Positions 9,208 to 55,538 of a DNA stretch of 64,000 bases are shown here, piece after piece (position 1 is the first letter of the stretch; each line of letters begins with the position of its first letter). The notes under the pieces are model-generated. The model was not told the origin of the DNA and did no database searches. It saw only the letters and a program-made list of their open reading frames with translations. This DNA is from an uncultured Cytophagia bacterium (lineage in GTDB: Bacteria; Zhuqueibacterota; Zhuqueibacteria; Residuimicrobiales; Residuimicrobiaceae): the NCBI GenBank assembly GCA_964541895.1, contig CAZISM010000001.1, positions 22,796 to 86,795 of the forward strand, read 5' to 3'. The position numbers were made by a program, and so were the translations under genes.

Positions 9208-9351
9208 TGTGCCTGCCGCCTCCTCCTTCCATATACCCTTTTCATTTTGAAATGGGGCCATTTTAAAATGAAATGGTCCAGCCGAATTCCTCCATTTTCT
9301 TTAAATTGCCGTTATTCGTAAGTACTATTATAAACAATGATATGTGCGTAT

Positions 9352-9380: not shown

Positions 9381-9477
9381 CATTGATAAGACATAGAGTG
9401 GTGATGCGAGGGCGATGGGATGGACAAACACTACTAACTATCTGGTTTCTCCCCCGGCTTTGTGGATTGGGAAGGTC

Positions 9478-13638: not shown

Positions 13639-13688
13639 TCGCCGGCCAACGCTTTCCTGACGTTAACGAATGACAAAGGATGCGGTTC

Positions 13689-36131: not shown

Positions 36132-37037
36132 ATGAAGCTCCATCGGTTGTGGATGCTCGCCATTGTTATCATGGCCGTAGTGATCGGTAACAGCTTTGCA
36201 CAAAATGTGAATCAACAAGTAGGTAGCAACGGCACTGTGGACTGGTCCAATCAGATTATCCGTTCGACAGGTATCGGATCGCCCAATCCCAATATGCCTG
36301 AAACCGCGCAGCGTGCCGGCGCCATCGATGCCGCAAAAAAGGCGGCCTTGCGGAATTTGCTCGAAACCGTCAAAGGCATGACGCTGGATGCGGAAACAAC
36401 AGTTAGAAATTTCATGGTCGAGAACGACGTCATCAATACGCGCGTCGCCGGCGTGGTTCGCAATTTCACGGTTGTGGATACCAAGTACATGTCCACCGGT
36501 GATATCGAAGTAACGGTGGAAATGCCCATTTCCGGGGCGCTGGCCGATGCCTTGCTGCCGCAAGGGATGGGCGGGATGACCCTGGGGCCTGTGAGCGGTA
36601 CTGTCTGTCCGTGCTGCGGACAGCCGTGGCCGGCGGGTCGGCCGGTTCCCAGCGGCATGACCCTGAATCAGCCTCCGGCGGCGACAACGGCCGGAGGAGC
36701 CTTTACCGGTCTGATCATCGACGCCAAAGGCCTGGGGATTCGCCCGGCCATGGCGCCCAAAATTGTGGATGAATCCGGTCAGGAAATTTATGGCAGCAAG
36801 TTTGTCAGCCGCGATTGGGCGGTGCAAATCGGCATGGTCGGTTACGACAAAGATGTCATGCGCGCCCGCAGCAATGATCGCGTGACGGCGAATCCGCTGG
36901 TGGTCAAGGCCATCAAGGCCTCCGGCCCCAACAAGGCCGACGTGGTGGTGTCCGCTGCTTCGGCAACGGCCATTCGAAATGCGGCGTCCACGCAAAACTT
37001 TTTGGACAAATGCAAAGTGATGTTCATCGTGGATTAA
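36132..37037 (+). CDS. Secreted LPP20-domain protein (LPP20/FlgP-like N-domain plus unknown C-domain)
   Basis: GGAGG RBS. Signal peptide. RAGAIDAAKKAALRNLLETVKG..GDIEVTVEMPI matches LPP20-family motifs. Paralogous N-domain in 38274..39488. Confidence 0.65.
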   Translation: MKLHRLWMLAIVIMAVVIGNSFAQNVNQQVGSNGTVDWSNQIIRSTGIGSPNPNMPETAQRAGAIDAAKKAALRNLLETVKGMTLDAETTVRNFMVENDVINTRVAGVVRNFTVVDTKYMSTGDIEVTVEMPISGALADALLPQGMGGMTLGPVSGTVCPCCGQPWPAGRPVPSGMTLNQPPAATTAGGAFTGLIIDAKGLGIRPAMAPKIVDESGQEIYGSKFVSRDWAVQIGMVGYDKDVMRARSNDRVTANPLVVKAIKASGPNKADVVVSAASATAIRNAASTQNFLDKCKVMFIVD

Positions 37038-37055
37038 CTTTGACGGGAGAAAAAT

Positions 37056-38204
37056 ATGAAACGTCTTTTTGTATTGTGTTCGGCTCTGGCCTTGCTTCTG
37101 GCCATCGTTGGCTGCGGACCCAAGGCCATCAAGGAAGCCTCGGTTCTGGATACGCCGGAAAACCACTATAATCAGGGCATGCGCGAGCTGGATCGCGGCA
37201 ACCTGGACAATGCGATGGGCGAATTCCAGCGTGCGCTGGCGCTGAATCCCAATTTTCCGGAAGGATTTGCCGGTCTCGGACTCGTGTGGGCCAATAAGGG
37301 TGATTTTAAAAAGGCCTATGAAAACGTCGACAAGGCGCTGGACAAGAACGACAAATCTCTGGACAGCCGCGTCATTAAGGGCCGCATCATCGTGATGGAA
37401 CGCAAAGGGGATGACTGGATCGACAAAGCAGTGAAAGAATTCGACAAAGCCAGCGAGATCAATCCCAATTCGCCCAAACCCGTTTTTTACAAAGGGGAGG
37501 CGCTGAAAGCCGGTTACCGTTTTCTCGATGCAGCCAACGCCTATAGCCGGGTCATCGCCATGAAGGGCGACTATGCGGCTGAAGCGGACAAATCCTGGTC
37601 GCTGGTGCAAAAGATACAGCGAGCCGCTCCTGGCACCAAAGTCGGCGCCAAAATCGCCCTGATCGACGAAATCGATCGCGCCGATGTGGCGGTCCTGTTT
37701 ATGGAAGAGCTGAAACTTCTGGAGATCATCAACAAAAAACGCCCCAAAACCTATGACACCGGTTTCAAGGCGCCCGATGATCCGACCAAAATGCAGACCT
37801 CGCAAACCGTGCAAATGGCCGATGTGACGGATGTAGCGACGCATTGGGCCAAAAACTGGATCAACGACATCGTGAAAGCACGCGGCATGGAGGTTTTTCC
37901 GGATCATACCTTCCGTCCGGATGAAAAAATTTCCCGCGCCGATTATGCCATGATGCTGCAGAACATTCTGGTCATGGCCACGGCCGATGAAACCCTGGCG
38001 ACCAAATATATCGGTACCGACTCGAGATTCCCGGATGTCAACGCCAGCCATTATGCCTACAACGCCACCTGCCTGATGGCCGATCGGGGTATCATGTCAG
38101 CCGACAAGATGACCGGCGCCTTTGACATCAACGCCCACGTTTCCGGTGCGGATGCATTATTGATTATTCGTGATTTTCAAAACGCCTTGCGAATGACTTT
38201 TTAA
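37056..38204 (+). CDS. TPR-repeat lipoprotein with two C-terminal SLH-like domains
   Basis: Lipobox LLAIVGCG. TPR repeats (LALNPNFPEGFAGLGLVW..). C-terminus has two SLH-like segments (FPDHTFRPDEKISRADYAMML; FPDVNASHYAYNATCLMADRGIM). Confidence 0.65.
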   Translation: MKRLFVLCSALALLLAIVGCGPKAIKEASVLDTPENHYNQGMRELDRGNLDNAMGEFQRALALNPNFPEGFAGLGLVWANKGDFKKAYENVDKALDKNDKSLDSRVIKGRIIVMERKGDDWIDKAVKEFDKASEINPNSPKPVFYKGEALKAGYRFLDAANAYSRVIAMKGDYAAEADKSWSLVQKIQRAAPGTKVGAKIALIDEIDRADVAVLFMEELKLLEIINKKRPKTYDTGFKAPDDPTKMQTSQTVQMADVTDVATHWAKNWINDIVKARGMEVFPDHTFRPDEKISRADYAMMLQNILVMATADETLATKYIGTDSRFPDVNASHYAYNATCLMADRGIMSADKMTGAFDINAHVSGADALLIIRDFQNALRMTF

Positions 38205-38273
38205 ATTCCAGAAAGGCGGCGGAGGCGGACCGTGAAAGAGGCCCGTCGCCGCCGCTTCTGCCGAGAAACGGAG

Positions 38274-39488
38274 ATGACTTTGAGCAGAAAACCGCTGTAT
38301 GTGATCCTGTTGCTGGGCATGCAGTTGGCCTTTGGTCAAACCGGATCGCAGCAGGTGCAGGCCACCGGCATGGGGGCTATCACCTACAACGATGTTGCGG
38401 CGGCGCGCGATCGTGCCTTGCAGGACGCTTTGCGCAAAGCCGTGGAACAAACGCTGGGCACGTTTATCGACTCCCAGACACGCGTTGAAAACTATATGGT
38501 CGTTGAGGACCGGATTCTGAATTGGACCCGCGGCTATGTCAACAATTATCAGATCGTCGCTGAACGGAAAGCGGCCGCGGACATGTATGAAGTCACCGTG
38601 AACGCCACCGTGGATGTCGGCGACCTTTCCAAAGACATGAATGCGCTGCAGAATCTGATTCAGAACATGGGCAATCCACGGCTCATGTTTCTGGTGGATG
38701 AAAAAAACATCGGCGATACGTTTGACCGCTACCACTATTTCGCCGTTGATATGACGGCCACGGAAACGGTTCTGATGAATAAATTCATGGAGAAAAACTT
38801 TGAGGTCGTGGATCCGTCGACCGTTCGCGCCAACAAGGAACGCGATGCGGTCATGGCGGCCATCAACGGTGACAACAGAGCGGCGGCGGCCATTGCCAAC
38901 GCGCTCGATGCGGAGGTGGTCATCACCGGCAAAGCCGTGGTTACCGTCGCCAGCGGTGTAAATCTGGCCGGTATGAAATCGTGTCAGGCCAATATCACCG
39001 CCCGTGTTATCGACGCCGATGTCGGCAGCGTTCTGGCCACCTCGATGAAAAACGCCGCCTATCCCCATATCGACGAGGTGACCGGCGGCAGCAAGGCGAT
39101 TGAAAAAGCGGCCGGTGCGCTGGCCGACGAACTCATCGCCAGAATCACTGAAAAATGGCGCAGCAAATTCTATCAGGCGGCCACCGTCAAGCTGCTGGTC
39201 ACCGGTTTGAGCAGTTATACCGATGCTTCCAACTTTCGCGGTGCGCTGCAGTATCTGGGGCGCGGCATCAAAGCCGTCAACCAGCGCAACATGAACGCCG
39301 GCGTGGGTGAATTCGATGTACAGATCGCCGGCAATGCCGATCAGTTGGCGCGCGAGCTCGATCAACGCAAGGTGACTAATTATTCAATCGTGGTAACAGG
39401 GGCGACCGCCAACAAGGTAACGTTAAAAGTGGTTCATGAAAACACAGGCGCTGCTCCTGCAGCTGCTGATACCCTGCGGCAAAATTGA
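38274..39488 (+). CDS. Secreted LPP20-domain protein with central CsgG/LpoB-like alpha/beta domain; ORF track GTG start at 38232
   Basis: Signal peptide MTLSRKPLYVILLLGMQLAFGQ. N-domain paralogous to 36132..37037. Central RLMFLVDEKN..NALDAEVVITGKAV pattern resembles the CsgG/TolB-N/LpoB fold. Confidence 0.6.
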   Translation: MTLSRKPLYVILLLGMQLAFGQTGSQQVQATGMGAITYNDVAAARDRALQDALRKAVEQTLGTFIDSQTRVENYMVVEDRILNWTRGYVNNYQIVAERKAAADMYEVTVNATVDVGDLSKDMNALQNLIQNMGNPRLMFLVDEKNIGDTFDRYHYFAVDMTATETVLMNKFMEKNFEVVDPSTVRANKERDAVMAAINGDNRAAAAIANALDAEVVITGKAVVTVASGVNLAGMKSCQANITARVIDADVGSVLATSMKNAAYPHIDEVTGGSKAIEKAAGALADELIARITEKWRSKFYQAATVKLLVTGLSSYTDASNFRGALQYLGRGIKAVNQRNMNAGVGEFDVQIAGNADQLARELDQRKVTNYSIVVTGATANKVTLKVVHENTGAAPAAADTLRQN

Positions 39489-39578
39489 CCGGTGTATCAG
39501 CTCTACGCACTCTTTTGCCGCCGTGATTCCAGCAAGGAGTCAGACTCTGACAGAGAAGATTTATAAGTGAGGTGTTCC

Positions 39579-40481
39579 ATGCGCAAAGTAATTGCTTCAA
39601 TTTTTATCCTGATGGTCGCCGTGACCATCGTAGCCGCCCAGGGGAAGAAACGAGTCGCTGTGTTTACTTTCGAGGACAAAACGGCGCATACGTGGCACTG
39701 GTGGACCGGGCAGCCGGTGGGGGAGGGGATGGCGGATATGCTGATCACATCCCTTGTAAAGACGGGAAAATATACCGTGCTGGAGCGAACACAGATCGCC
39801 AAACTGATGGAAGAACAAAAGCTGGGCCAGACCGGTGCCGTCACGCCGGAGAGCGCGGCCAAAGTGGGGCAGCTGCTCGGCGTCGAACTGGCCATTATGG
39901 GTTCGGTAACCGAATTCGGCTATTCCAAGAAGGAGGTAGGGGGTGCTCTTAAAAAAGTAGGCTTTGGTGTAGGCGTAAAAAGCCAAAAAGCGACCGTTGC
40001 GGTTGATGTTCGTTTTGTCAATACCAGCAGCGGCGAGATCATGTCCGCGGAATCGGTGCGTGAAGAAGAGTCTTCCAAAGGGATTTCCCTGGACACCCAG
40101 AAATTCGATTTTGACAATCAGAGCCAATTCGACGAGTCCATCGTCGGCAAGGCGACTCGCAAAGCCATTGACAAGATGGTCGGCCTGATCGACGGTGCCT
40201 CTGCCAATGTGTCGTTCTCCGCCAAAATCATCAAAGCCGATGGTCAGATCTTTATCAATGTCGGCGCCGCATCCGGCGTTAAAGTCGGTGATGTGTACAC
40301 CGTGTACCGTAAAGGGGAAGATTTGACCGATCCGGATACAGGCCTGTCGCTGGGCGCCACCGAAAGCAAAATCGGCCGCATCAAAGTGGTCGACAATAAC
40401 ATCGGCAACGGCAAGGCCTCCTCATGTGAAGCCATCGAAGGATCCGGATTTCAGAGGAATGACCTGGTAAAACAGAAATAG
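39579..40481 (+). CDS. CsgG-family protein (curli-type outer-membrane secretion channel homologue); ORF track GTG start at 39567
   Basis: KRVAVFTFEDKT..GEGMADMLITSLVKTGKYTVLERTQIAKLMEEQKLGQTGAV..VGQLLGVELAIMGSVTEFG is the CsgG N-terminal signature. Signal peptide has no lipobox Cys. Confidence 0.75.
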   Translation: MRKVIASIFILMVAVTIVAAQGKKRVAVFTFEDKTAHTWHWWTGQPVGEGMADMLITSLVKTGKYTVLERTQIAKLMEEQKLGQTGAVTPESAAKVGQLLGVELAIMGSVTEFGYSKKEVGGALKKVGFGVGVKSQKATVAVDVRFVNTSSGEIMSAESVREEESSKGISLDTQKFDFDNQSQFDESIVGKATRKAIDKMVGLIDGASANVSFSAKIIKADGQIFINVGAASGVKVGDVYTVYRKGEDLTDPDTGLSLGATESKIGRIKVVDNNIGNGKASSCEAIEGSGFQRNDLVKQK

Positions 40482-40561
40482 CGGCAGCAATGAGCTGAAC
40501 GGGCATGGAGGAGTTGATGCAGCGTGCGACTCCTCTTTTATTTTATGGAGAGTCAGGAACT

Positions 40562-41305
40562 ATGAACATGGGCAAACAGGTGTGCATGATTCTCATGGCG
40601 ATGGCCCTGATCTGGAGTGGAACGGCGCCGGCGGCTAAACCGATCGGAACCTTTGCCTTTATCCTCGGCGGTCCGCAGGATGTTCAAGTGAAAAGCAAAG
40701 GCGGAGCGGTCTGGAATTCGGCCAAGCTGGGACTGACGGTGAGCGACGGCGACTGGATCAAGACCAAAAAAGAGTCGCGTTGTGAAATCAAACTGGCGGA
40801 CAAGAGTCTGATTCGCCTCGGTGAGGAAACCGAGTTTGAATTTACGGCGGCGAATATCACGGCGCAGCAGCGCAACGTCAAGGGCGATTTGAAAACCGGT
40901 CAGGTTTATCTTAACCTGAACACAAAAACGTCCAGCAAAAGTCAGTTTCAGATCAAGGCGCCTACTGCGGTCTGCGCAGTCCGGGGCACCATTTACCGCA
41001 TCGATGCAGACTCGACCACCCAGTGCACCGTGTACGACGGCACCGTGGACGTAGGGCCGGCCAAGTTGTGGGGTCAGCCGGTCAAGCGGGAAGGTAAAAG
41101 CCTGCAACCCTATCAGGTGCCGGGTCCGTCGCAGGTACCGGGTCCGTATGAAGTGAGCCTGGATCAATGGGTACAGATTGTCAAGGGATTCCAGATCACG
41201 GTGCGCCGGGACGGCAAATTCGCTAAAACACAATTCGATGCCCAACAGGATGCCGGGGACGAGTGGGTCAAGTGGAACAAGCAACGTGATGGCATGGTGA
41301 AATAG
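40562..41305 (+). CDS. FecR-domain secreted protein
   Basis: Signal peptide MNMGKQVCMILMAMALIWSGTAPAA. FecR-like beta segment (CEIKLADKSLIRLGEETEFEF..VRGTIYRIDAD). Confidence 0.65.
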   Translation: MNMGKQVCMILMAMALIWSGTAPAAKPIGTFAFILGGPQDVQVKSKGGAVWNSAKLGLTVSDGDWIKTKKESRCEIKLADKSLIRLGEETEFEFTAANITAQQRNVKGDLKTGQVYLNLNTKTSSKSQFQIKAPTAVCAVRGTIYRIDADSTTQCTVYDGTVDVGPAKLWGQPVKREGKSLQPYQVPGPSQVPGPYEVSLDQWVQIVKGFQITVRRDGKFAKTQFDAQQDAGDEWVKWNKQRDGMVK

Positions 41306-45125: not shown

Positions 45126-46838
45126 ATGCGGTATGATTTGTGTCTGCTGCTCCTTGTGGGCGGATTATCAGCGCTCCCGGCCAAAGATACGGCTCTGCAA
45201 CGAATCGAATCTGATTTTGCGGCCGGCATGCTTTCGCGTGCGCGAGCCGTGGCCTATCAGCTGCAGGCCATACGCGAGCCGGAGAAATTGCCGGACCCTT
45301 ATCGCTCACTGGACGCAGGCCTGACGCGTGAGGCCACTCGCCTGAAAAACGAAGCCTTGTCGCTGATCGACGGAGCCCTCCCGCAGGAGCGGGAACTTTT
45401 GCAGCAGGTCCTGCTGCGGCCGGAGCTGCCCCTGAGCCTGGTCAGCAGCGGCGGCCATTTTAAAATCCATTATACCCTGGAAGGTATCAACGCGGCGACG
45501 CCGGATTTTGTGCAAGCTGCAGCCGCGGCGTTTGAATATTGCTGGAGGGTGGAAGTGGAGCAGTTGGGCTTTCAGCCGCCGCCGCCGGATGATGTCGATG
45601 GCCCAGAGATTGATGTATATGTTCTTCAATATGGAGATTACGGTTCCACCACACCGGATCGTCCCGTGCCCTCCACGCCGCAGGAGGACTATACGTCGTG
45701 GATTGAAATGGATAACGATTTTATCCATACCCCCACCAGAGGGCTGGATGGCATGCGCGTAACCGCGGCCCACGAACTGTTTCACACCATCCAATTCGGC
45801 TACCGCTCTTATCAGACCACGACACAGTCTTCCGTTTACTTTTACGAAGCAACGGCCGCATGGATGGAAGACGTTGTATACGACGACATCAACGACTATC
45901 TGAACTATCTCAAATCGTTTTTCCGCTCTCCGGAGATACCGTTTACAAGCGCCAACGGCACCGTCGAATATGGTCGGGCAATATTTTTTCACATGCTGTC
46001 AGAAAAATATGATACCGGCATTATGAAAGCCATCTGGGATGAAATGAGAACGACCGAACCCCTGGAGGCCTTGTACACAGTGCTGGTTCGCCGGGGCAGC
46101 AATCTCAATATGGCGCTGGCGGAGTTTGCCGTCTGGAACTGCCATACGGCGACGCAGGCAGACACCAGCCGCTTTTACTCAGAGGGACATCTGTTTCCCG
46201 CCCTGACGGCCAACACCTCTTTTGAACTGACCTCGTCGCTGGCGATTTCCGGGACCGCAGCGCCTCTATCAACGCATTATTATAAAATCACCAGCCAGGC
46301 CGGCCTGGCAGATATTCTGGTGTCACCGTCGCTTTCCGATCCTTTTAATGCCGTTTATGCGCTGTCATGGCAGAACTGGACCGCTACCCCCTTGTCAGAC
46401 GTGCTGGCCGGCCCCACCAGCAAGAACCTCGCCAGCGTGTCCGGCAGCGCCCCGCTCTGGATCATGCCGATTTATACGCGATCGCCCTATACCGCCGGCC
46501 GTGATTTGTCTTTCACCTTTGCACTTAACCTTGGTGAGGAAAAGTCGATCTCATCCCAAATCGTATTGGCCTATCCTAATCCATTTCGGCCGCCGGCTGA
46601 TCGCAAATTGACCATCGCCTTTCTGATCCAGACCGCAGAACAGGTCTCTGCCAGCATACTGTCCGAGCAGGGGATTGAAATCTGGTCCCAGTCTTTGGGC
46701 GCGTGCCCTAAAGGCTGGAACAAATGCGAGTGGGACGGCAAGGACAGAAGCGGCCGTTACGTGGCATCAGCCATTTATCTATTTATGATTCGTACAGCTT
46801 CCTGGACCGAGGTGTGCAAATTTTCTTACCTCCGTTAG
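45126..46838 (+). CDS. Secreted HExxH zinc metalloprotease with T9SS (Por) C-terminal sorting domain
   Basis: Signal peptide. TAAHELFHTIQFGY motif. C-terminal AYPNPFRPP..WDGKDRSGRYVASAIYLF matches the TIGR04183-type CTD. Confidence 0.75.
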   Translation: MRYDLCLLLLVGGLSALPAKDTALQRIESDFAAGMLSRARAVAYQLQAIREPEKLPDPYRSLDAGLTREATRLKNEALSLIDGALPQERELLQQVLLRPELPLSLVSSGGHFKIHYTLEGINAATPDFVQAAAAAFEYCWRVEVEQLGFQPPPPDDVDGPEIDVYVLQYGDYGSTTPDRPVPSTPQEDYTSWIEMDNDFIHTPTRGLDGMRVTAAHELFHTIQFGYRSYQTTTQSSVYFYEATAAWMEDVVYDDINDYLNYLKSFFRSPEIPFTSANGTVEYGRAIFFHMLSEKYDTGIMKAIWDEMRTTEPLEALYTVLVRRGSNLNMALAEFAVWNCHTATQADTSRFYSEGHLFPALTANTSFELTSSLAISGTAAPLSTHYYKITSQAGLADILVSPSLSDPFNAVYALSWQNWTATPLSDVLAGPTSKNLASVSGSAPLWIMPIYTRSPYTAGRDLSFTFALNLGEEKSISSQIVLAYPNPFRPPADRKLTIAFLIQTAEQVSASILSEQGIEIWSQSLGACPKGWNKCEWDGKDRSGRYVASAIYLFMIRTASWTEVCKFSYLR

Positions 46839-46868
46839 GCAGGTGTACAAAAATTGGACAAAAACCGC

Positions 46869-46897
46869 TTGACAAAGCTCTTTTTTATTTCTAAATT
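46869..46897 (+). promoter_or_regulatory. Sigma-70-like promoter candidate: -35 TTGACA, 17 bp spacer, -10 TAAATT
   Basis: Read directly. Lies about 300 nt upstream of the next gene inside a 353-bp AT-rich spacer. Confidence 0.3.
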
Positions 46898-47084
46898 CAA
46901 TAAATAGGCAATATTGTGTCACAAGAACGTGATAAAAGCCAGATGTACTCTTTCGAAACAGTGGTGCAGTAAAAGCAGGCAAAAAAGGGTCAGTTTGCAC
47001 AGCAGCAGATAGTTCTCAATACGTAGTGATGGTATAACTCATTTATAAACAACATCTGCACGAACCGCTCCCGGTGCAGCCACC

Positions 47085-47100
47085 TGGCATTATTATTGCA
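47085..47100 (+). promoter_or_regulatory. Sigma-54 promoter: TGGCAT-N5-TTGCA (-24/-12 elements, canonical spacing)
   Basis: ctGGcattattatTGCa: GG and GC exactly 10 nt apart. About 90 nt upstream of ATG 47192. Confidence 0.6.
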
Positions 47101-47191
47101 ATGCACTATCAGGAGAATTATATCGGGCAGGGCAACTGACGGTTATGAGCAATTTAACACCATTCAAGCCTTCTGATAGGGGAAGCGACCT

Positions 47192-48496
47192 ATGAGGTAC
47201 AAGTTAGTCGTTCTATTCGTGTGTGCCATGGCCTTTGTGACCCAGGCAGCAGATGCACCCAAAGAGAAGGAAGCAAAGCTGGGCATCGGCCTTAATGCGG
47301 GCGTGCAAAAACCGTATTGCGACGTTCTGCACACCGGTTTGGCACCGGCCGGCGAAGTAATGATGCGCCTGCTGTTAGGCAAAATGTTCAACATCTCTCT
47401 TTCTGTAGGTGGAGGCCTGCTGAGTGACGGCTTTTCCTATTCCACCTTTAAAACGACGATGGCGGTGGCGGATTTAAAGCTTAACGTCAATCTGAGCACC
47501 ACAGGCCGCATGCGACCATACCTCTCGGTGGGTGCCAGCGGCTACAGCTTTGATTATAAAAAAGAAAAGCCGTGGGCGATCGGCTTGCCCGGCAATGAGG
47601 GCAAGCGTTTTACCTCCAGCGCTGTTATCTTTGGCGGCGGCGTCGAGTATTTGACCTCGCCGAAATTTGCCATCAACCTCTTTGCCGATTACCGGCATAC
47701 ACCGACTGATTTGCTGGATGGTGCCGAAATCGGCAAAGCCAAGGACGGCTATCTCAACGGCAGAGTCGGTTTCACCTATTATCTGGGCGGCCGTTCCATC
47801 AAAAAAGCCGGCAAGCCGGAGGACGATCTGATCGCCCTGCAACAGGGTGAGGCCGGCGATCTGAACGCAGTGAACAAGGACAAATTGGCGACCTTTGAAG
47901 CCAAGCTCGACAAACTGGAAGCCGGTGACGCCGACCTCTCCATGGAGTCCTATGTGCGACTAAAGTCGCGCGTGGACGAACTTGGCCAGTTGATAGAGAG
48001 CAAAGAGAAAGAGCTGGACGATCTGCACTCGGCGCTGGATTTTAAAAATCGCCGCATCGCGGATCTGGAATCTTCGCTGCAAAAGGCAACAAGCGTCGGC
48101 ATTCCTGCCGGCAGCGTGAGCGTGACGGACTTTAGCCCGGCCTACGATCAGGCTCTGCGCAATTTCTACAGCCGCAACTACAACGAAGCCATTGCCGTGT
48201 TCGAACAGCTCAAGATCAAATATCCCAACCATGCCCTGGCAAGCAACTGCCAATACTGGGTGGGAGAGTGTTACTTTGGCATGCAGAACTATCAGCAAGC
48301 CCTGGACGCATTTCAAGGTGTTTTCAACTGGGCCAATTCCACCAAAAAGGATGATGCAACCCTCATGCTGGGCAGGTGCTATCTCAACCTGAAAGATCAG
48401 GAAAAAGCGCGCGGCTACTTTAAGGGGGTCATCGACGATTATCCGGATAGCGAGTATCGCGAAAAAGCCAGACAATGGCTGAATAGAATAGGCTGA
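47192..48496 (+). CDS. Outer-membrane beta-barrel (OmpA-N-like) fused via coiled coil to YbgF/CpoB-like TPR domain
   Basis: Signal peptide. Beta-strand-rich N-terminal half with aromatic-ended strands. Coiled coil (KLDKLEAGD..IADLESSLQK). C-terminal YbgF-like TPR (NYNEAIAVFEQLKIKYPNHALASNCQYWVGECYF). Confidence 0.7.
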   Translation: MRYKLVVLFVCAMAFVTQAADAPKEKEAKLGIGLNAGVQKPYCDVLHTGLAPAGEVMMRLLLGKMFNISLSVGGGLLSDGFSYSTFKTTMAVADLKLNVNLSTTGRMRPYLSVGASGYSFDYKKEKPWAIGLPGNEGKRFTSSAVIFGGGVEYLTSPKFAINLFADYRHTPTDLLDGAEIGKAKDGYLNGRVGFTYYLGGRSIKKAGKPEDDLIALQQGEAGDLNAVNKDKLATFEAKLDKLEAGDADLSMESYVRLKSRVDELGQLIESKEKELDDLHSALDFKNRRIADLESSLQKATSVGIPAGSVSVTDFSPAYDQALRNFYSRNYNEAIAVFEQLKIKYPNHALASNCQYWVGECYFGMQNYQQALDAFQGVFNWANSTKKDDATLMLGRCYLNLKDQEKARGYFKGVIDDYPDSEYREKARQWLNRIG

Positions 48497-48501
48497 AAAT
48501 T

Positions 48502-48538
48502 AAAAAGGCCGACCTGTAACAGAGGTTGGCCTTTTTTC
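48502..48538. terminator. Bidirectional rho-independent terminator (A5-ggccgacc/ggttggcc-T6)
   Basis: Read directly, between convergent genes. Confidence 0.6.
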
Positions 48539-48575
48539 TTAAGGGCTTGCAAGCCCACCGCGGATGGGTGGGCGG

Positions 48576-48758
48576 CTATTTCTTCTCCCCATATTTTTCC
48601 ACAAACGACCTGATCTCGTCAAGGTGCTGCAAAATCAGTTTTGCTTTTCCCACACCAAAACTGAACGGAAACCGTTCACCCGGATTCAAGGTCAGCACCG
48701 GGTTCCCTTTGTATTCGCCCACGATCGGGCCGGCAGGTTTTTCTTCCTGATCGCTCAT
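48576..48758 (-). CDS. Small hypothetical protein (60 aa) immediately downstream of the cyclase gene
   Basis: Co-oriented, 11-nt gap after the cyclase stop. No recognisable domain. Overlaps two + strand ORFs of similar size. Confidence 0.35.
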   Translation of the reverse strand: MSDQEEKPAGPIVGEYKGNPVLTLNPGERFPFSFGVGKAKLILQHLDEIRSFVEKYGEKK

Positions 48759-48769
48759 AGGATTTCCTC

Positions 48770-50881
48770 TTATTTATGTTCCATGTCATAGACGCCGTTC
48801 CAGTTATCCGGAACGGGATTTTCCAGATTATTCAGACAACGGCCGGTATACAGGCGGGAAGGGCCATCAGAGGGAAAATAGCGCAACACCCTGCGGAATT
48901 GACGCAAGGACTCTGCCCAGCGTCGCTCCCGGTACGCCTGTACGCCTTCGCCGAAAATGTCAACGATAAACTCCTGTTCGATGTCAGGCAGGGTCTTGAT
49001 GCCACGCAATTCGTAGATCCGGAGAGGTTTGCTTCTTCCCATCACCCGCACCAGATCCAGTTCACGAACGCAGACCAGATCCTTGACGGGTTCATAGGTT
49101 TGCTCGCTGATGATGATGGTGGTTTCATAATACTTGTTCAGACCTTCCAGGCGGGCGCCCACGTTTACCTCGTCGCCGATTACTGTGTAGTCGAACATCT
49201 GGCGCGAGCCCAGGTTGCCAACGATCACTTTGCCGCTGTTGATGCCGATACCGATGTTAAAGTATTCCTTGTAGTCAATGGACCAACGCTTCTGTATCTG
49301 CCGCAGGTTATCCACCATATCCAAAGCGGTCCTGCAGGCCCGTTCAGCATGATCCGCGTAGAAATAGGGGGCGCCATACACCGCCATGATTTCGTCGCCG
49401 ACAAATTTGTCGAGGGTGCCGTCGTATTTAAAGATGATCTCGACCATTTCAGACAGATATTCCTGCAAGCGATGAACGACCACTTCAGGTTCATGGGTTT
49501 CTGAAAACGAAGTAAACCGTCTGATATCGGAAAACAGCACGGTCAATTCCCTGCGCTCTCCGCCATAGGAGGGCAACTCGCCGCTGCTGAGCATTTTTTC
49601 TACCACGCTGGGGGCAACATACTGCTGAAAGGTTTTGCGAATACGGGCTTTTTCTCTCTGTTCGGTAACCGTCTGGAAGGCCAGTCCGACAATGTAGGTG
49701 AATAGCACGGTGAGTACCGGCATGACCAGGTTGAGAACGGTACGGTAATGAATGAAGAGAAGATACCCGGCCGTAACCGCCAGGAGCCCCAGGCTGACGC
49801 TGACAAAAAGTGCGCGAAACGGTTTGAGGGACAGGGTGACCGCGCTGGTCAACAGGGCCAACAGGATCACAAGAGTGGCTGTTAGCCACAGGGGGGCATC
49901 GCGCAGAAACGCATGGTGAAGCAGCGTATTCAAGGCATTGGCGTGCATCTCTACGCCCGGCAATTTTTGTCGCTTGCCGCCATGCTCAAAAAAAGGGGTG
50001 TATTTGTTATCCTGCAATTCTTCCGCCGAAGCGCCGACGAACACTATTTTGTCGCGAAAGGTGTTCCACAGCAGATGCTGTTCAAAGACATCGGTATCTT
50101 CATCTTCGGCGAGATCAAACTCGGCGTCATCCAGAAGAGTGGAGAGTGAATAAGTTCTGAACGTCTGTGCCGGACCTGCGAAATTGACGTACATGGTGTT
50201 ATCCGAAACGGTGGGCACCTGCAGCGGTCCGTACTGAAAAAAGCCTCCGGCCACCCGGGGCGGCGCCAGGCCGGGACGGACAGCGTGCAGGGACAAAAAG
50301 GCCTGCACAGCCAGCGGGAAATAGGGGCGGTCTGGCATCTGCTGAAATAGCAAGTATTGCCGGATAAAGCCGTCTGCATCTTCGACGACGTTGACCAGGC
50401 CGATGTCAGCGCCTGTGGCCAGCAGGGGCGCGACGGGCTTGAGAATAAAGTGGTTGTTGACGCTGCGGCGACTCTGATCCAGGACCACCTTGCCGGCCAG
50501 TATGACGTTGCCTGCTCCGGCAACGGCGGCGGCCAGCGAGTCGTCTTCCTGCGGGTGTTCCCGGCTGGGCTCGGTGAACTCTACATCAAAGACGATCAGG
50601 CGGGCGCCGGCCAGCTGCAGGTTGTGGATCATGCGCGCGAAATAGGTTCTCGGATAAGGCCATTTGGTCGGCAGGCTTTTCATGCTTTCATCGTCGATGG
50701 CCACAATAACGATAGAGGTATCGGCTGACGCGTCAGCTCCGCGCAGGCTGAAAAGAGTATTGATAGTACGAAGTTGAAAGTTGCGTGATACACCCAGTGA
50801 AGAGAGGGCCGCGGCCAGCATTAATCCGAGAGAGGCAAACCGCAGAACGTTAAAAGCCAGTTTTGTCGCCTTTTTGCTCAT
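48770..50881 (-). CDS. CHASE2-domain membrane sensor fused to class III adenylate/guanylate cyclase
   Basis: N-terminal TM, periplasmic CHASE2 region, three TM helices. Catalytic domain motifs TVLFSDIRRFT, FVGDEIMAVYG, GIGINSGKVIVGNLGS. Confidence 0.85.
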   Translation of the reverse strand: MSKKATKLAFNVLRFASLGLMLAAALSSLGVSRNFQLRTINTLFSLRGADASADTSIVIVAIDDESMKSLPTKWPYPRTYFARMIHNLQLAGARLIVFDVEFTEPSREHPQEDDSLAAAVAGAGNVILAGKVVLDQSRRSVNNHFILKPVAPLLATGADIGLVNVVEDADGFIRQYLLFQQMPDRPYFPLAVQAFLSLHAVRPGLAPPRVAGGFFQYGPLQVPTVSDNTMYVNFAGPAQTFRTYSLSTLLDDAEFDLAEDEDTDVFEQHLLWNTFRDKIVFVGASAEELQDNKYTPFFEHGGKRQKLPGVEMHANALNTLLHHAFLRDAPLWLTATLVILLALLTSAVTLSLKPFRALFVSVSLGLLAVTAGYLLFIHYRTVLNLVMPVLTVLFTYIVGLAFQTVTEQREKARIRKTFQQYVAPSVVEKMLSSGELPSYGGERRELTVLFSDIRRFTSFSETHEPEVVVHRLQEYLSEMVEIIFKYDGTLDKFVGDEIMAVYGAPYFYADHAERACRTALDMVDNLRQIQKRWSIDYKEYFNIGIGINSGKVIVGNLGSRQMFDYTVIGDEVNVGARLEGLNKYYETTIIISEQTYEPVKDLVCVRELDLVRVMGRSKPLRIYELRGIKTLPDIEQEFIVDIFGEGVQAYRERRWAESLRQFRRVLRYFPSDGPSRLYTGRCLNNLENPVPDNWNGVYDMEHK

Positions 50882-50918
50882 GTTGCCCTGTTCAGAGAGT
50901 GCGCCGCGGCGAGCCGGA

Positions 50919-53501
50919 CTAGAAATATTTATCGTATCGAATCCGGAAGAGTTTATCCGTATAAGCGCCCGTGCTGCTGTTGGCCGTCGTCTTCATATTG
51001 ATAAAGTCGGCGTCTGCTTTGAGGGTATGTTGCCTGGCTATGGTGAAGGTTAATCCTAATCGCGCCTGATCTCGATCCAGAGAACCGATCGCCGCAGAGG
51101 CACCAGCCATACGAATCCTTCTGCCATCAATGTACGAAGTTAAACGATCCCGCACAATAGCATATTCGGCGGCGCCGCCGATCATGGTGTAGTCGAGTTG
51201 GCCCTGCTGCAGCGCTCCGTTGTTCTGGTTGGTGGCATAGCTCAACGTCGCCTTGAGCGGGAAAGAAAATTGTGTGGCCCACGAGATCATGGCGATGGAG
51301 GTGCTGATTTCCCGGCTGAGATAACCGGGCAAACGCGTGGCGTTGTACTCGTCGATGTTTCGGGAGGAGGTAAAGCTGAGATTCAACGTGTGCTGCAGAT
51401 CAAACAGATGCACGTCGTATCCCAATTGCGCGGAAAGATCGTTATAGATGGTGCGTTCGCGATTATCCACCAGGGTGGTATCCAGGGTAAGGCCGGTGTT
51501 GAGAATTCTGGTTTCGACCAGGGATACGCCGTTGTCGCGATGATGGTCGCGTTTGCTGAGGGTCAGTTGCGGCAAACCCATGCCGGGATAAAAGGTGATG
51601 CCATAGTTCAGAGTCTTGAGGGAGATGGCCGGATTGGCATTCTGTTCGCTGAAATTATCCAGATAATCTTCGTACCCCAGATTGACGTACAGTTTGTTTT
51701 TGAAGAGACGGATGCGGTCAGAGAAATAGAGGCCGGCGATGTCCTTGCGCAGCCAGGCGTTGGCCAGGGAAAGGTAGGCGCCGCCGATGGATTTGTAGCC
51801 CACCTGCAGCAGGTTGTGGAAATAATCCAGTTTGATGGAGCCGTCATAGGCGACAGAGCTCATTTCCAGCGGGTTGATGGGCGAGGTGCTTTCGTTAATG
51901 ACCAGATATTTTTCCAGACTTTGTGGGTCGATGGGCAGTTCCGTGTCAGAACCGAAAATACGTTTCACATCATCCGAGTTGATGGAACCGGGCGCTGTGT
52001 TGTTGGTGAGAAAACTCATGGCCGCGTTGGCCTCGATGACAAAACGGCCGCGATCGAAAACGATTTTCATGTCCGGCCCGAACACCAGGTTGTCTTTGGG
52101 CATGGTGCCGTACCTGATGGACTTGATCTGATCCTTGACCTTGATCAGGGACAGGCCCAATTGAAATCGTTTGCCGCTGCCCAGGCTGGGGCGGATGCCA
52201 ATCAGGTCCTGACCATAGGTGCCGTAGCCGGCCATAGCGATAGAATCGGCGCCACTGGCGGATTTGAGCAACAGCGTCCGTCCTTCGATGGCGCGATTGG
52301 TCTCGCCGCTGATAAAATCAACATTGATGAATCCCAGGTGCAGAAAACCGGAGAGGCCGCGCACCCGTTTGCCCCACAGAATCAGCGGATTATACATGGG
52401 ATGATTATCACCGGCGGCGATGCCCAGCCAGGAGGTATACAGGGTCATGTAATACTGGTTGCGCGGCTGATAGGTGCGATCTTCCTGCGACGTAAGATAC
52501 ACATTGCCTTGATAATGCAAACCGCCGTACTGACCGTTAAAATCAAATCCACCCGTGTAGTAGGCGTTGTCAGTAGCGTGCACCTGTTCGCTGCGGCCAT
52601 CGGCAAAGATGTGGATCTGTCTGTTTTGTTTCACCGCCGGCTTTTGTTTTTCCTCTGCCACGCGGAACGAGAGGCCGACAGGCGGGAGGTCCACCCCGGC
52701 TATGCTTCTGCCTTCGATTTCAACAGAATGTTTGCCGGGCTTTAAATGTTTGGGTTCCAGAATGACCAGGCTGGCGCTGATGGAAGCGATGGTAGTCATG
52801 TCAGCCCCGTCCAGCCAGATCTTGATCGAGCTGGAATCCACCTGTACCTCTGAAGTGATGAGACTCACGGCAATGGACAATTCATCGGCGGCTACTTCTT
52901 CATCCGGATCCGGCGACAGGAACAGCAGCGGCGAACCCGTGATCTCCGCTGCGGATTCGGATGGCGCAGGCGATGCTTGTGCTTTGCTGGAGTCTGTGCG
53001 GGCGGCCGCTTTGGATTGAAATTCGGGAAAGGCAGCCGCCTGGGCCGCCGCTTTGATGCTTGATACTTTCTCAGGCACGCTGTTTGGTTCAGGGACCGGG
53101 AGCGCTGATTCCGTGACGAGGATCTCTTCCGGCCGATTGTAGGGATTGATTTCCGGATAGGACAACACCGTCTCGTTGTCGACCGCAGCGGAGATAAAGT
53201 ACTGCATGCGCGGCGCTTTCACGGCGGCGGCCGGAATGGTGGCGATCCAGCTCGAACCCTGCGGTGTCATCTGAATCTGATGAAAGGTGGTCTCGTTGAT
53301 GTTCCGATAGTATACTCTCGCCTGATACACGCGCAGCAGAGAGGGGGTAAAATTAGCCTCCAGCGTTACCGCCGTACCGGCAGCGGCTGCAGTGATCGGC
53401 TGATGCAACAAGCGCGCTATCTGCGTCAAGCCGGAGGCCGGACATACCAGCAGAGCCGATATACTGATCCACAGTGACAACCGTTTCAGGAACATATTCA
53501 T
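50919..53501 (-). CDS. Large outer-membrane beta-barrel protein of unknown family (860 aa)
   Basis: Signal peptide MNMFLKRLSLWISISALLVCPASG. C-terminal aromatic ...IRYDKYF. Alternating amphipathic strands. Ala/Ser/Pro-rich linker after the N-domain. Confidence 0.7.
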   Translation of the reverse strand: MNMFLKRLSLWISISALLVCPASGLTQIARLLHQPITAAAAGTAVTLEANFTPSLLRVYQARVYYRNINETTFHQIQMTPQGSSWIATIPAAAVKAPRMQYFISAAVDNETVLSYPEINPYNRPEEILVTESALPVPEPNSVPEKVSSIKAAAQAAAFPEFQSKAAARTDSSKAQASPAPSESAAEITGSPLLFLSPDPDEEVAADELSIAVSLITSEVQVDSSSIKIWLDGADMTTIASISASLVILEPKHLKPGKHSVEIEGRSIAGVDLPPVGLSFRVAEEKQKPAVKQNRQIHIFADGRSEQVHATDNAYYTGGFDFNGQYGGLHYQGNVYLTSQEDRTYQPRNQYYMTLYTSWLGIAAGDNHPMYNPLILWGKRVRGLSGFLHLGFINVDFISGETNRAIEGRTLLLKSASGADSIAMAGYGTYGQDLIGIRPSLGSGKRFQLGLSLIKVKDQIKSIRYGTMPKDNLVFGPDMKIVFDRGRFVIEANAAMSFLTNNTAPGSINSDDVKRIFGSDTELPIDPQSLEKYLVINESTSPINPLEMSSVAYDGSIKLDYFHNLLQVGYKSIGGAYLSLANAWLRKDIAGLYFSDRIRLFKNKLYVNLGYEDYLDNFSEQNANPAISLKTLNYGITFYPGMGLPQLTLSKRDHHRDNGVSLVETRILNTGLTLDTTLVDNRERTIYNDLSAQLGYDVHLFDLQHTLNLSFTSSRNIDEYNATRLPGYLSREISTSIAMISWATQFSFPLKATLSYATNQNNGALQQGQLDYTMIGGAAEYAIVRDRLTSYIDGRRIRMAGASAAIGSLDRDQARLGLTFTIARQHTLKADADFINMKTTANSSTGAYTDKLFRIRYDKYF

Positions 53502-53517
53502 GGGATCCTTTAGTAAG

Positions 53518-54189
53518 CTATTTTTTCTTGAAGCGGATTTTCAATGTCTTTTTCTGACCTTCTGAATTCTGAAACTCGATGTCGAGATCCTGCTCCTCAT
53601 CAGCCAGTGCCCAGTCGGGTACGCTGCCGCCGGGAGAGGAGGAGGGCTTTTCGCCTTTTTTGGAAAATCCCATCTCACCTTTGCCGACCAAAACTTCGCC
53701 GAGTTCGTTCAACAGCTGGACCAGGCCCTCTACACCGAAAATAAAGGTCTGTCCCAGGTTGTCTACGACCGTGTAAAACTCGGTCCCTTTCACCGCAGCA
53801 ACGCCGGAAGGGGTTTGTACGCGATAGCCGGCGCCGTTGGGGGTGACCTTGCTCCACAATTCACCCACGCTTACGTACAGTTCTTTGCTGATGCCTTTTT
53901 CCTTCTTTTCGCCCTTGATTTCCACATCGGAGTTGGCGCGTATTTTCATCATCGTCTTGTCATCCAGGAACACCAGCGAAACCAGGGCGTTTTCCTGAGT
54001 GCGGATGCGATCGCCGCTATGGACACGGCTGCCTTTTTTGAGAACGGCCCAATCCTGGTTGGCTGTTTTTATGCTGGCGGAGCCGACCACCTTGAGAACA
54101 AAGGCGATTTCTCTGACCGGGGCGGCGGTAAGCCAGACAGCCCAAACGAGCATCAGAGCAGCAAGCGAAAAAGAAATTCTAGCGGACAT
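53518..54189 (-). CDS. FecR-domain secreted protein
   Basis: Start at the Met with GAGAGAGG RBS. Signal peptide MSARISFSLAALMLVWAVWLTAAPV. FecR-like beta segment. Lys-rich C-terminal tail. Confidence 0.65.
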   Translation of the reverse strand: MSARISFSLAALMLVWAVWLTAAPVREIAFVLKVVGSASIKTANQDWAVLKKGSRVHSGDRIRTQENALVSLVFLDDKTMMKIRANSDVEIKGEKKEKGISKELYVSVGELWSKVTPNGAGYRVQTPSGVAAVKGTEFYTVVDNLGQTFIFGVEGLVQLLNELGEVLVGKGEMGFSKKGEKPSSSPGGSVPDWALADEEQDLDIEFQNSEGQKKTLKIRFKKK

Positions 54190-54205
54190 ATTTACCTCTC
54201 TCAGC

Positions 54206-55342
54206 TCATTCACAGGATACATGGACAATCGTGTACTCGCCGTTTTTAATTTTAGCCAACAGAGCGAGAACCTGATCCATAGAGTAGGGTCTGCCATTGA
54301 TGGTAAAGACGCCAGTCGGCGTAAAGCCGTTGAGCGGACCGGAGGCGATCAGCAGCGCTGCCAGTTGATCACCCAGCACGCCGCCCAGCTCGGACAGCAG
54401 GAACGAAGGGGCCCCCTCGCCGCTGCTGGAGAAATCAACCAGTTTGAACGCCCAGATTTCGCCGGGCAATTCCACCTCGGTTCCGGAGGTGGCTGCCAAT
54501 CCTGTGATCTGCCAGTAATAGGTTTTGCCGCGCTCCAACGGCCACACGCCGCTGGCTGGGTACTGATAGGCGGTGGTGGCGAGAACGTCGATGCCGTTGG
54601 CCAAAGCCCGGTCGATGCGGAAGGTGCGGTCAAAACGCACCCGGTCGCGCATAACTTCTTCAGGGCTGGCGCCGGCATGCACATCCGGCAGCTTTTCAGC
54701 AATGCGCAGGCGGAATTTGTCCAGATTGGAATCCCAGCGAAACAGGGGCAACAGAGTATAAACAGGCATGGGTTCTTCCCGGCCGGCCGGGCTGCCTGGA
54801 CTGATCAGAGTCAGGGTGGAGGGATTGTCCACTCGAATCGAAATCTCGGCGTGGCTGACGTGAGAGGAATTCAATTGATGCAAATCAAAAAGAAAATAAT
54901 AGGTATCAGAGGGCAGCTTTCCCGTGGCCAGCAGACGATTTTTCAGTTCATTTCCGGCCCCTTCGATAGAATAGTCCTGCAGGCGAAATTGCTGCGCCTC
55001 GGTGAAGAGATTCTGATTGGTTAATCGAATGGCTTGTGCCGGATTCAGCGTAAAAGGCTGCGTCCGCCCGGAAGCCAGTTCGCCCATGGCATCGGAGCGG
55101 ATGGTCAGCACCAGGTAACAGGGGACCGCTGTGAGTGAAGAATTGTTCATAACAATTGAAAAAATATCACCGCTGCTGGTCCCTTTGCCCGTCAAATTAA
55201 AATCACTCAGGAAGAATATTCTCAAGCCAGGGTTCAGGAGTTGGGCTGAAATATTAACCTGCTGAGCAAAGCCTCCATGGACCATGAGGACGAGGACCAA
55301 CAACAAGGTTAATGACATGACCGGAAAACGGGTAGCGTGCAT
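54206..55342 (-). CDS. Secreted hypothetical protein; first gene of the FecR/OMP/CHASE2-cyclase operon
   Basis: Start at the Met with GGAGGGG RBS (55342). Signal peptide MHATRFPVMSLTLLLVLVLMVHGGFAQQ. No recognisable domain. Confidence 0.6.
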   Translation of the reverse strand: MHATRFPVMSLTLLLVLVLMVHGGFAQQVNISAQLLNPGLRIFFLSDFNLTGKGTSSGDIFSIVMNNSSLTAVPCYLVLTIRSDAMGELASGRTQPFTLNPAQAIRLTNQNLFTEAQQFRLQDYSIEGAGNELKNRLLATGKLPSDTYYFLFDLHQLNSSHVSHAEISIRVDNPSTLTLISPGSPAGREEPMPVYTLLPLFRWDSNLDKFRLRIAEKLPDVHAGASPEEVMRDRVRFDRTFRIDRALANGIDVLATTAYQYPASGVWPLERGKTYYWQITGLAATSGTEVELPGEIWAFKLVDFSSSGEGAPSFLLSELGGVLGDQLAALLIASGPLNGFTPTGVFTINGRPYSMDQVLALLAKIKNGEYTIVHVSCE

Positions 55343-55383: not shown

Positions 55384-55399
55384 TACAATTCGAATGCCA
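55384..55399 (-). promoter_or_regulatory. Sigma-54-like promoter candidate on minus strand: TGGCAT-N5-TTGTA (imperfect -12)
   Basis: Reverse complement of 55384-55400 reads ttGGcattcgaatTGTa. Correct spacing, but -12 is GT not GC. About 30 nt upstream of the 55342 start. Confidence 0.25.
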
Positions 55400-55538
55400 A
55401 AAAAATATTATTGATTTATTTATAGTTAGTGCAGGACAAGCAGGCTGGAATATGTTGTATTTTGAAATAGTGTATCATATAAATACAGATAACATTGCAT
55501 TTATAAAGTATTATTCCTATATTGTTAAGCGGGTAAAA

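Follow-up and report, generated by a model that had tools for sequence, protein, structure and literature searches.

Is a sigma-54-type motif in front of an outer membrane protein gene a genuine promoter, and what would the protein do? The question is raised by a locus in a 64,000-nt stretch of DNA (the window; positions 22,796 to 86,795 of contig CAZISM010000001.1, assembly GCA_964541895.1) from an uncultured bacterium of the candidate phylum KSB1 (= Zhuqueibacterota). A sequence-only reading of the window had noted TGGCAT-N5-TTGCA about 90 nt before a gene at 47192–48496. It took the gene product for a fusion of an OmpA-like beta-barrel, a coiled-coil spacer and a tetratricopeptide repeat (TPR) domain of the YbgF/CpoB type. 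It proposed that the fusion would tether Tol-Pal-type coordination to the outer membrane and hinted that an NtrC-family activator encoded elsewhere in the window was the regulator. In our analysis the motif and the fusion were confirmed, and the interpretation held for the promoter and for the protein architecture; the Tol-Pal tethering and the link to that activator were not upheld. We consider it probable that the gene encodes an outer membrane fusion protein expressed from a sigma-54 promoter with a palindromic enhancer, and that it belongs to an inducible envelope regulon shared with a convergent operon.

The probable promoter before the fusion gene

The motif at 47085–47100 (Table 1) is intergenic and has the same orientation as the fusion gene. 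From its last base to the ATG at 47192 there are 91 nt, and from its first base 107 nt. The −24 GG (47086–47087) and the −12 GC (47098–47099) are one helical turn apart, so the exact −24/−12 spacing reported earlier is present. When the window was scored with an approximate sigma-54 position weight matrix (PWM), this site reached 16.1 of a possible 19.1 bits and was the best on both strands, with the runner-up at 13.25 bits. A second exact match to the core, at 10088, was rejected because it lies inside a small coding open reading frame (ORF) that is pilin-like. By itself, within 64 kb, the motif at 47085 is not significant beyond chance. It stands above chance because of its placement and its conservation among relatives.

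We compared 80 related loci and counted the promoter in 77 of them, before the first gene of the unit. A −24/−12 match (TGGCAY-N5-TTG) was found at most 230 nt before the first operon gene in 68 of the 77, the background rate being 0.064 per 230 nt. The ten closest loci (L001–L009 and L011; proteins 51–67% identical) carry TGGYAY-N5-TTGCW 109–156 nt before the ATG. When their upstream regions were aligned, GG and TTGC were invariant and the spacer varied, and the rest of the intergenic region could not be aligned. Family-wide, GG and TTG are invariant and the spacer is variable. About half of the family has TTGT or TTGA at −12 instead of TTGC, which is off consensus. TTGT at −12 has a characterised precedent, because the sigma-54 promoter of E. 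coli pspA, read from the K-12 genome as TGGCACGCAAATTGTA, carries it. Two of the close loci (L002 and L003) also contain another strong −24/−12 match, TGGCAGGAATATTGCA (16.6 bits in L002), 418 nt before the fusion ATG and within the 3′ end of an MXAN_6640-type gene.

In about 55 of the 80 loci (among L010–L078) a conserved 175-aa ORF, here called s175, lies 13–270 nt upstream of the fusion gene. The −24/−12 element of these loci is found mostly 56–91 nt before s175 and not before the fusion gene. Thus the element tracks the first gene of the unit, whether s175 is present or not. Neither a copy nor a remnant of s175 was found in the window or in the 21-kb loci of its clade. In a neighbour-joining tree the window, L001–L009 and L011 form one clade, and since this clade nests among s175-bearing clades, s175 most likely disappeared from it while the promoter stayed. 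The s175 protein has no significant Pfam or NCBIfam family, and its database names are all "hypothetical protein". Its AlphaFold (AF2) model is all-helical and weak, with a predicted local distance difference test score (pLDDT) of 69, and a Foldseek search of this model against the PDB gave no match with E below 1. The protein is probably cytoplasmic.

This arrangement recalls pspA/PspF of E. coli. Both have an activator-dependent promoter (predicted here) on an envelope-related unit, TTGT at −12 (here in many members) and a small helical cytoplasmic protein as the first gene (here s175, in most relatives). The s175 protein differs in having no sequence or fold similarity to PspA, and we take the analogy as a lead, not a finding.

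From the geometry of sigma-54 promoters, transcription would start near 47111. The predicted 5′ untranslated region (UTR) showed no significant structure on folding (z = +0.34). An Rfam scan of 46700–48800 gave no match in the UTR, and only sub-threshold Thr_leader matches on the terminator downstream of the gene. By eye, a possible anti-Shine-Dalgarno pairing can be drawn in L004–L011. An inverted repeat, CTGCAC-N12-GTGCAG (47055–47078), abuts the −24 element and is not conserved in the clade alignment.

On placement and conservation, we regard a sigma-54 promoter before the fusion gene as very likely real. It is an ordinary member of its class. Sigma-54 control of the cell exterior is a known theme (Francke et al. 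2011, PMC3162934), and the promoter at 47085 fits it.

A palindrome upstream of two convergent transcription units

The sigma-54 holoenzyme forms a closed complex, and an ATP-dependent enhancer-binding protein is needed for transcription to begin. The interval 46.84–47.08 kb, in which the sequence-only reading advised looking for activator-binding palindromes, contains a conserved 17-bp TGT-N11-ACA palindrome at 46944–46960. Counted between first bases, it lies 141 nt upstream of the −24 element. Of 67 loci, 35 have TGT-N11-ACA between 230 and 50 nt upstream of the promoter, compared with 2.5% of control windows (20-fold enriched). When N10 is allowed as well, 45 of the 67 loci have the palindrome. 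Its distance from the promoter falls into three groups, 101–112, 131–153 and 183–199 nt upstream. The consensus approaches TGTATT-N5-RATACA, with the right half-site RATACA strongly conserved.

Enhancers of the NtrC/NifA type include the 17-bp TGCACC-N5-GGTGCA and TGT-N10-ACA. The present palindrome shares with them a position 100–200 bp upstream of −24/−12, the 17-bp geometry and the TGT...ACA ends; it differs in the half-sites (TGTATT/RATACA) and in the N11 spacing. The geometry is thus that of an activator enhancer, and binding of an activator is predicted. An activator dimer or hexamer would bind at 46944–46960, and DNA looping would bring it to the promoter. Another TGT-N11-ACA match, TGTACAAAAATTGGACA, is located 241 nt upstream of the promoter, where it overlaps with the weak terminator that follows the preceding gene. 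It is not conserved in the clade alignment; as a pattern match only, its status is uncertain.

Downstream, the terminator at 48502–48537 is common to the fusion gene and to the convergent operon on the other strand. Because this terminator is strong, the fusion gene is a single-gene unit in the window, and it would be transcribed from the RpoN promoter at 47085–47100 to the terminator. The convergent operon includes a CHASE2 adenylate/guanylate cyclase gene and begins with a gene of no known family, unk390. A second sigma-54-type promoter precedes unk390, and an equivalent lies 43–58 nt before unk390 in six relatives (L081–L084, L092 and L093). For the TTGT at its −12, pspA is again the precedent. 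A second copy of the palindrome (55471–55487) is 88 nt upstream of the unk390 promoter. All seven loci examined (the window and these six) have both promoter and palindrome before the convergent operon, with TGT-N11-ACA about 82–107 nt upstream of the operon promoter. The fusion proteins of the seven loci are 40–100% identical to that of the window, and those of the six others 40–65%. The synteny of the fusion gene and the CHASE2 operon is kept down to 36% identity, even with different upstream genes.

As the same promoter-plus-palindrome module precedes both units, the simplest and most likely reading is that they are co-regulated by one activator. The fusion unit and the convergent CHASE2 operon would then most likely form one inducible envelope regulon.

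A conserved box, AAATGCAA, adjoins the palindrome before unk390 on its upstream side (~55490–55500), and likewise in L081, L083 and L084.

Candidate activators

The NtrC-family activator named by the sequence-only reading is indeed encoded in the window, at 7801–9129. It has REC, Sigma54_activat (1.4e-74) and HTH_8 domains and a GSFTGA motif. As a complete receiver, AAA+ and helix-turn-helix (HTH) activator in the same window, it might be thought to fire the promoter at 47085. We judge this very unlikely. The gene is 38 kb away and is paired with its own PAS kinase, and directly downstream of it, at 9372, is a separate sigma-54-like site that precedes a receiver gene, a pilin-like ORF and genes of the type II secretion system/type IV pilus (T2SS/T4P) type. 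The repeats upstream of that site (9243–9278) differ from TGT-N11-ACA. The activator shares only 36–44% identity with those encoded next to family members and differs from them in the HTH tail. From its position, the 7801–9129 activator looks dedicated to the adjacent pilus-like cluster, in a PilR-like arrangement.

Within that cluster, the activator gene is followed by a terminator, the repeats CATTTTGAAATGG and CCATTTTAAAATGAAATGG, and the sigma-54-like site TGGCATAATCATTGAT. Downstream come the receiver gene (9415–9867), the pilin-like ORF (9901–10305; MGQQQLLLIVLSVIIVGIAVVVGINMF...), and then T2SS/T4P-type F, E and secretin genes. The pilin-like ORF had been omitted from the list of ORFs, which was drawn up at 150 aa.

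In relatives, activators do lie close to family members. In L046 (1960–6310) a histidine kinase, a sigma-54 activator, a TGGCATATTAATTGTA promoter and a paralogue of the fusion gene follow one another directly; in L085 and L079 activators are encoded no more than a few kb from family members. The activators in the window and beside family members (L046, L079, L085) have intact GAFTGA or GSFTGA motifs. Those beside family members are 34–44% identical to each other and to that of the window. The genome of L046 also holds an s175-type copy (L036).

The fusion protein

The 434-aa product has the three-part architecture that had been read from the sequence, as judged by Pfam, TIGR02795, AF2 and Foldseek. 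We built an AF2 model on 39 homologues (mean pLDDT 84). The protein begins with a signal peptide, for which the homologues have equivalent, conserved hydrophobic N-termini. Pfam places OMP_b-brl (PF13505) at aa 9–173 (6e-10; 40 bits against a cut-off of 28.7). The strand count for which the earlier reading had called is eight in the model, at aa 29–197, with block-mean pLDDT of 82–98 over aa 31–200. Foldseek matched the barrel best to the OmpA transmembrane domain (TM-score 0.72–0.73; 0.72 for 1bxw), and also to Ail, NspA, OmpX and OmpW.

The linker that follows is modelled with pLDDT below 50 at aa 209–229. Beyond it is a single 49-residue helix (aa 252–300), and the stalk region carries a conserved heptad-like block, MEQYVRLKSRVDEL, in the homologue alignment. 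Pfam gave weak coiled-coil-type matches at aa 227–297, as well as TPR_6/TPR_2 matches. The stalk has no Pfam TolA_bind_tri match, and in hhalign it does not align to the N-terminal trimerisation domain of CpoB.

The C-terminal domain is modelled as seven TPR-type helices (aa 314–433) in three repeats. NCBIfam TIGR02795 (tol_pal_ybgF) passes at the border: over aa 317–428 it scores 92.0 bits, where 90.1 are required. When the family profile was compared with the PDB, YbgF (2xev, 3e-16) and CpoB (6g5s, 6e-16) were ahead of BamD (3qky, 2e-10) as the best natural sequences. Superposition of the TPR domain on Xanthomonas YbgF (2xev) with Foldseek gave a target-normalised TM-score of 0.85–0.88 and a root-mean-square deviation of 1.7–1.8 Å. 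In the alignment with E. coli CpoB that the sequence-only reading had suggested, hhalign matched residues 160–262, the TPR, with a probability of 98% and 26% identity, and no other part of CpoB. Two cysteines stand out in the alignment: aa 43 (47318–47320) in the barrel region, in QKPYC, is conserved in most members, and aa 353 (48248–48250) in the TPR, in NCQYW, is invariant in 39 sequences.

The fusion is not a one-off, because full-length homologues form about 110 clusters at 90% identity; at 50% identity there are about 100 representatives among the best 150. Several genomes have two paralogues.

A barrel with an even number of strands has both termini on the periplasmic side, from which we would expect the stalk and TPR to hang beneath the outer membrane. 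On this model the OmpA-like eight-stranded barrel would anchor a flexible linker, a helical stalk of about 7 nm and the CpoB/YbgF-type TPR, all three in the periplasm. The plan resembles that of OmpA (signal peptide, eight-stranded barrel, flexible linker and periplasmic module) and differs in having a helical stalk and TPR instead of the peptidoglycan-binding OmpA_C domain. CpoB/YbgF (6g5s, 2xev) has the homologous C-terminal three-repeat TPR, a helical stalk before it and the expected periplasmic location; the present family differs by its N-terminal integral eight-stranded barrel, by the lack of tol-pal neighbours and by the predicted activator-dependent sigma-54 promoter. BamD/YfiO matches the TPR as well (TIGR03302 48.3 bits, 3qky and Foldseek), and one homologue entry is named BamD. 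We rejected identity with BamD/YfiO, as the TIGR03302 score is far below its cut-off of 81.4, the domain is shorter with three repeats and not five, and there is no conserved lipobox.

Outer membrane anchoring of CpoB has been described in another form. Soluble CpoB is the norm in Proteobacteria, and outside them anchoring in the outer membrane is reported to be common: a recent study (Mol Biol Evol 2025, PMC12204202) gives an outer membrane lipidation signal for 82% of non-proteobacterial CpoB proteins and takes anchoring in the outer membrane as ancestral. The same paper describes PorE of Bacteroidota as a CpoB-TolB-Pal-like fusion lipoprotein. The lipoprotein CpoB and PorE have in common with our protein the FCB-group neighbourhood and a CpoB-type TPR on the periplasmic side of the outer membrane, a location that is predicted for our protein; our protein differs in its transmembrane beta-barrel anchor in place of an N-terminal lipid and has no TolB-like or Pal-like domains. 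What is unusual in the fusion is therefore not its anchoring to the outer membrane but its anchoring by an integral barrel. A literature full-text search found no title or abstract describing an integral-barrel-anchored CpoB, although such absence is not proof. The two KSB1 genome papers are silent on sigma factors, on Tol-Pal and on the envelope. The integral OmpA-like barrel appears to be a new variant of the CpoB anchoring theme. By analogy with CpoB and BamD, the TPR would be a protein-docking platform beneath the outer membrane, and a Tol-Pal role is not indicated.

Weighing the alternatives

Several results weigh against the regulatory interpretation. The PWM only approximates the published frequencies. 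A score of 16.1 bits was reached in 36% of first-order Markov simulations of 64 kb, and the core TGGCA-N6-TTGC occurs twice in the window against 1.19 expected, which is the level of chance. The off-consensus −12 element in half of the family has to be added to these. A scan of the window and the 80 loci for an RpoN box found none, and the presence of rpoN is deduced from the activators. The terminator hairpin of the upstream gene is degenerate and weak in the window, so read-through is possible. A sigma-70-like TTGACA-17-TAAATT is also found at 46869–46897. The motif might have arisen by chance or might bind another factor, with the fusion gene driven by a housekeeping sigma or by read-through from the metalloprotease gene upstream. 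We hold this to be highly improbable, because both half-sites are kept at fixed spacing in 68 of 77 loci within otherwise unalignable intergenic DNA, the element stays before the first gene of the unit with or without the 175-aa gene, and a kinase and activator pair lies directly upstream of a paralogue. The TTGACA was rejected as the main promoter, since it corresponds to the loop of a terminator hairpin whose well-formed version is seen in L001–L003. The palindrome, for its part, may belong to another regulator. CRP-type sites are TGT-N10-ACA (TGTGA-N6-TCACA), and some lineages have N10 (10 of 67 loci). A cyclic-nucleotide regulator of the CRP/FNR family would tie expression to the cyclase of the apparently co-regulated operon; an adenylate/guanylate cyclase is encoded in the proposed regulon, and a receiver protein with a cyclic nucleoside monophosphate-binding domain is encoded at 13680–14645 in the window. 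Against it, the dominant form is 17 bp (N11) with TGTATT/AATACA halves, which is NtrC-type geometry and not TGTGA-N6-TCACA, and a position 100–200 nt upstream is typical of enhancers. Moreover, a sigma-54 promoter requires an activator site anyway, and the clade alignment has no other conserved element. We therefore consider a CRP/FNR site quite unlikely. A sigma-54 promoter with an activator enhancer is the reading that we prefer, given its conservation across the family together with the upstream palindrome and the kinase and activator beside one paralogue.

The fusion could also be the Tol-Pal CpoB of this phylum. Held by its barrel, it would, like E. coli CpoB, link the outer membrane constriction driven by Tol-Pal with the synthesis of peptidoglycan, and it would be expected to bind TolA and to modulate PBP1B-LpoB. 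In favour of this, the TIGR02795 score exceeds the cut-off, no natural PDB entries match better than YbgF and CpoB by sequence or by fold, coiled coil and TPR follow each other in the order seen in CpoB, and an anchored ancestral CpoB would agree with such a role. Nevertheless, this identity is unlikely. In non-proteobacterial species cpoB adjoins tol-pal in about 70% of cases (PMC12204202), whereas neither the annotated parts of the window nor the genes called in eight extended loci (L081–L086, L092 and L093) include tolQRAB or pal. The TIGR02795 margin is 2 bits, the alignment to CpoB is limited to the TPR, the stalk is unlike the CpoB trimerisation domain, and BamD-type TPRs match too. Several genomes carry two paralogues. 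An activator-dependent promoter would not be expected of a division housekeeping factor. We also considered two barrel-less TPR relatives (P0115 and P0116) as stand-alone CpoB; neither is near tol-pal genes, and they were uninformative. The proposed tethering of Tol-Pal-type coordination is thus not borne out, and the preferred reading remains a TPR protein of the outer membrane that is expressed under sigma-54 control.

Coordinates and neighbouring genes

Table 1. Features of the fusion gene, its convergent operon and the s175 gene. Positions are those of the window unless a locus is named; a dot marks an element without strand.
Feature	Position	Strand	Remarks
Second TGT-N11-ACA match, TGTACAAAAATTGGACA	46844..46860	.	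Pattern match
Candidate enhancer (upstream activating sequence), 17-bp palindrome TGTACTCTTTCGAAACA, TGT-N11-ACA	46944..46960	.	Island in clade upstream alignment
Sigma-54-type −24/−12 promoter, TGGCAT-TATTA-TTGCA (TGGCATTATTATTGCA)	47085..47100	+	Best PWM match, conserved
Predicted 5′ UTR, ~81 nt	47111..47191	+	Predicted start ~47111, 12 nt past −12 C
Shine-Dalgarno AGGGGAAG	47178-47185	+	Precedes ATG 47192
Fusion ORF, 434 aa	47192-48496	+	Signal peptide, barrel, linker, helix, TPR
Signal peptide, ~aa 1–20, MRYKLVVLFVCAMAFVTQAA	47192..47251	+	Read from sequence; model helix aa 2–21
Eight-stranded outer membrane beta-barrel, aa 29–197	47276..47782	+	Pfam, AF2, Foldseek
Predicted periplasmic linker (disordered, aa 198–232) and helical coiled-coil-type stalk (aa 233–241, 252–300)	47783..48130	+	
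YbgF/CpoB-type TPR domain, aa 314–433	48131..48490	+	TIGR02795, PDB profile, Foldseek, hhalign
Bidirectional intrinsic terminator AAAAAGGCCGACC...GGTTGGCCTTTTTT	48502..48537	.	−21.5 kcal/mol, z = −4.3, 0/200 shuffles as stable
Convergent operon	48576..55342	-	unk390, FecR, 860-aa outer membrane protein (OMP)-like, CHASE2 cyclase, 60-aa ORF (transcription order)
60-aa ORF, operon end	48576-48758	-	53–83% identical across loci
CHASE2 adenylate/guanylate cyclase	48770-50881	-	Domain search
860-aa OMP-like protein (unk860)	50919-53501	-	Signal peptide, C-terminal aromatic residue, no known family
FecR-domain protein	53518-54297 (ORF-tool listing)	-	~35–40 codons longer than orthologues
unk390, 378 aa, signal peptide, no known family	54206-55342	-	Corrected start
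Second sigma-54-type promoter TGGCATTCGAATTGTA	55384..55399	-	57 nt before unk390 ATG
Second palindrome copy	55471..55487	.	TGTATCATATAAATACA on + strand, TGTATTTATATGATACA in gene orientation
s175, examples	L013 5340-5870; L024 5387-5914		First gene of sigma-54 unit in most relatives

The ATG of unk390 was set at 55342, behind GGAGGGG, according to the orthologues; the start given by the ORF tool (55378) is too far upstream. For unk860 and unk390 there was no PDB sequence match and no significant NCBIfam family, and in the form listed the two ORFs gave no Pfam family. The 60-aa ORF matched no family in Pfam or NCBIfam.

The genes of the Der GTPase and of an MXAN_6640-type HExxH metalloprotease precede the fusion gene. 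The latter has an immunoglobulin-like C-terminal FlgD_ig domain and weak matches to type IX secretion proteins. The conserved neighbours of the fusion gene are Der, the MXAN_6640-type protease and the CHASE2 operon. The names of the homologues and related loci point to candidate phylum KSB1.

Further upstream, an envelope cluster (36132–41305) encodes LPP20-like lipoprotein, TPR/SLH, FlgT_N, CsgG-like and FecR-domain proteins, and it is kept upstream of the Der gene in L081, L083, L084 and L086. An extracytoplasmic function (ECF) sigma factor and a zf-HC2 anti-sigma factor are encoded at 34718–35769 on the minus strand.

Significance

To our knowledge, KSB1 is a phylum without cultured members and without described transcription signals. 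The locus as a whole is a conserved, uncharacterised envelope module in this uncultured phylum, assembled from known kinds of parts. To the sequence-only reading our analysis adds the conserved candidate enhancer, the 175-aa operon partner that was most likely lost, and a regulon that would be common to the fusion gene and the CHASE2 cyclase operon.

For the CpoB family, which has soluble and lipoprotein forms, an integral barrel would add a third arrangement, with the CpoB-type TPR kept at the outer membrane. It bears on the recent proposal that CpoB originated as an outer-membrane-anchored protein. Caution is advised with the database name "tol-pal system protein YbgF" for the fusion family, which rests on the TPR alone.

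For KSB1, the locus offers a concrete and testable regulatory unit with a promoter, a candidate enhancer and two target operons, and it suggests that the sigma-54 promoters of this lineage tolerate TTGT at −12. A broader and more tentative possibility, less likely than not, is that the fusion is not a Tol-Pal part but the structural arm of an undescribed sigma-54/activator-dependent envelope regulon across the sampled KSB1 metagenome-assembled genomes. One activator would bind the TGT-N11-ACA enhancers and switch on both convergent units. The first unit would supply a barrel-anchored TPR platform across the periplasm, ancestrally co-transcribed with the 175-aa cytoplasmic protein. The second would supply a sensor module made of the FecR-domain protein, the large OMP-like protein and the CHASE2 cyclase, which would produce a cyclic nucleotide. 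The TPR may dock the periplasmic parts of this sensor module or peptidoglycan enzymes. If this is true, the two units would connect the outer membrane to signalling in an inducible way, with a logic comparable to that of Psp or Rcs.

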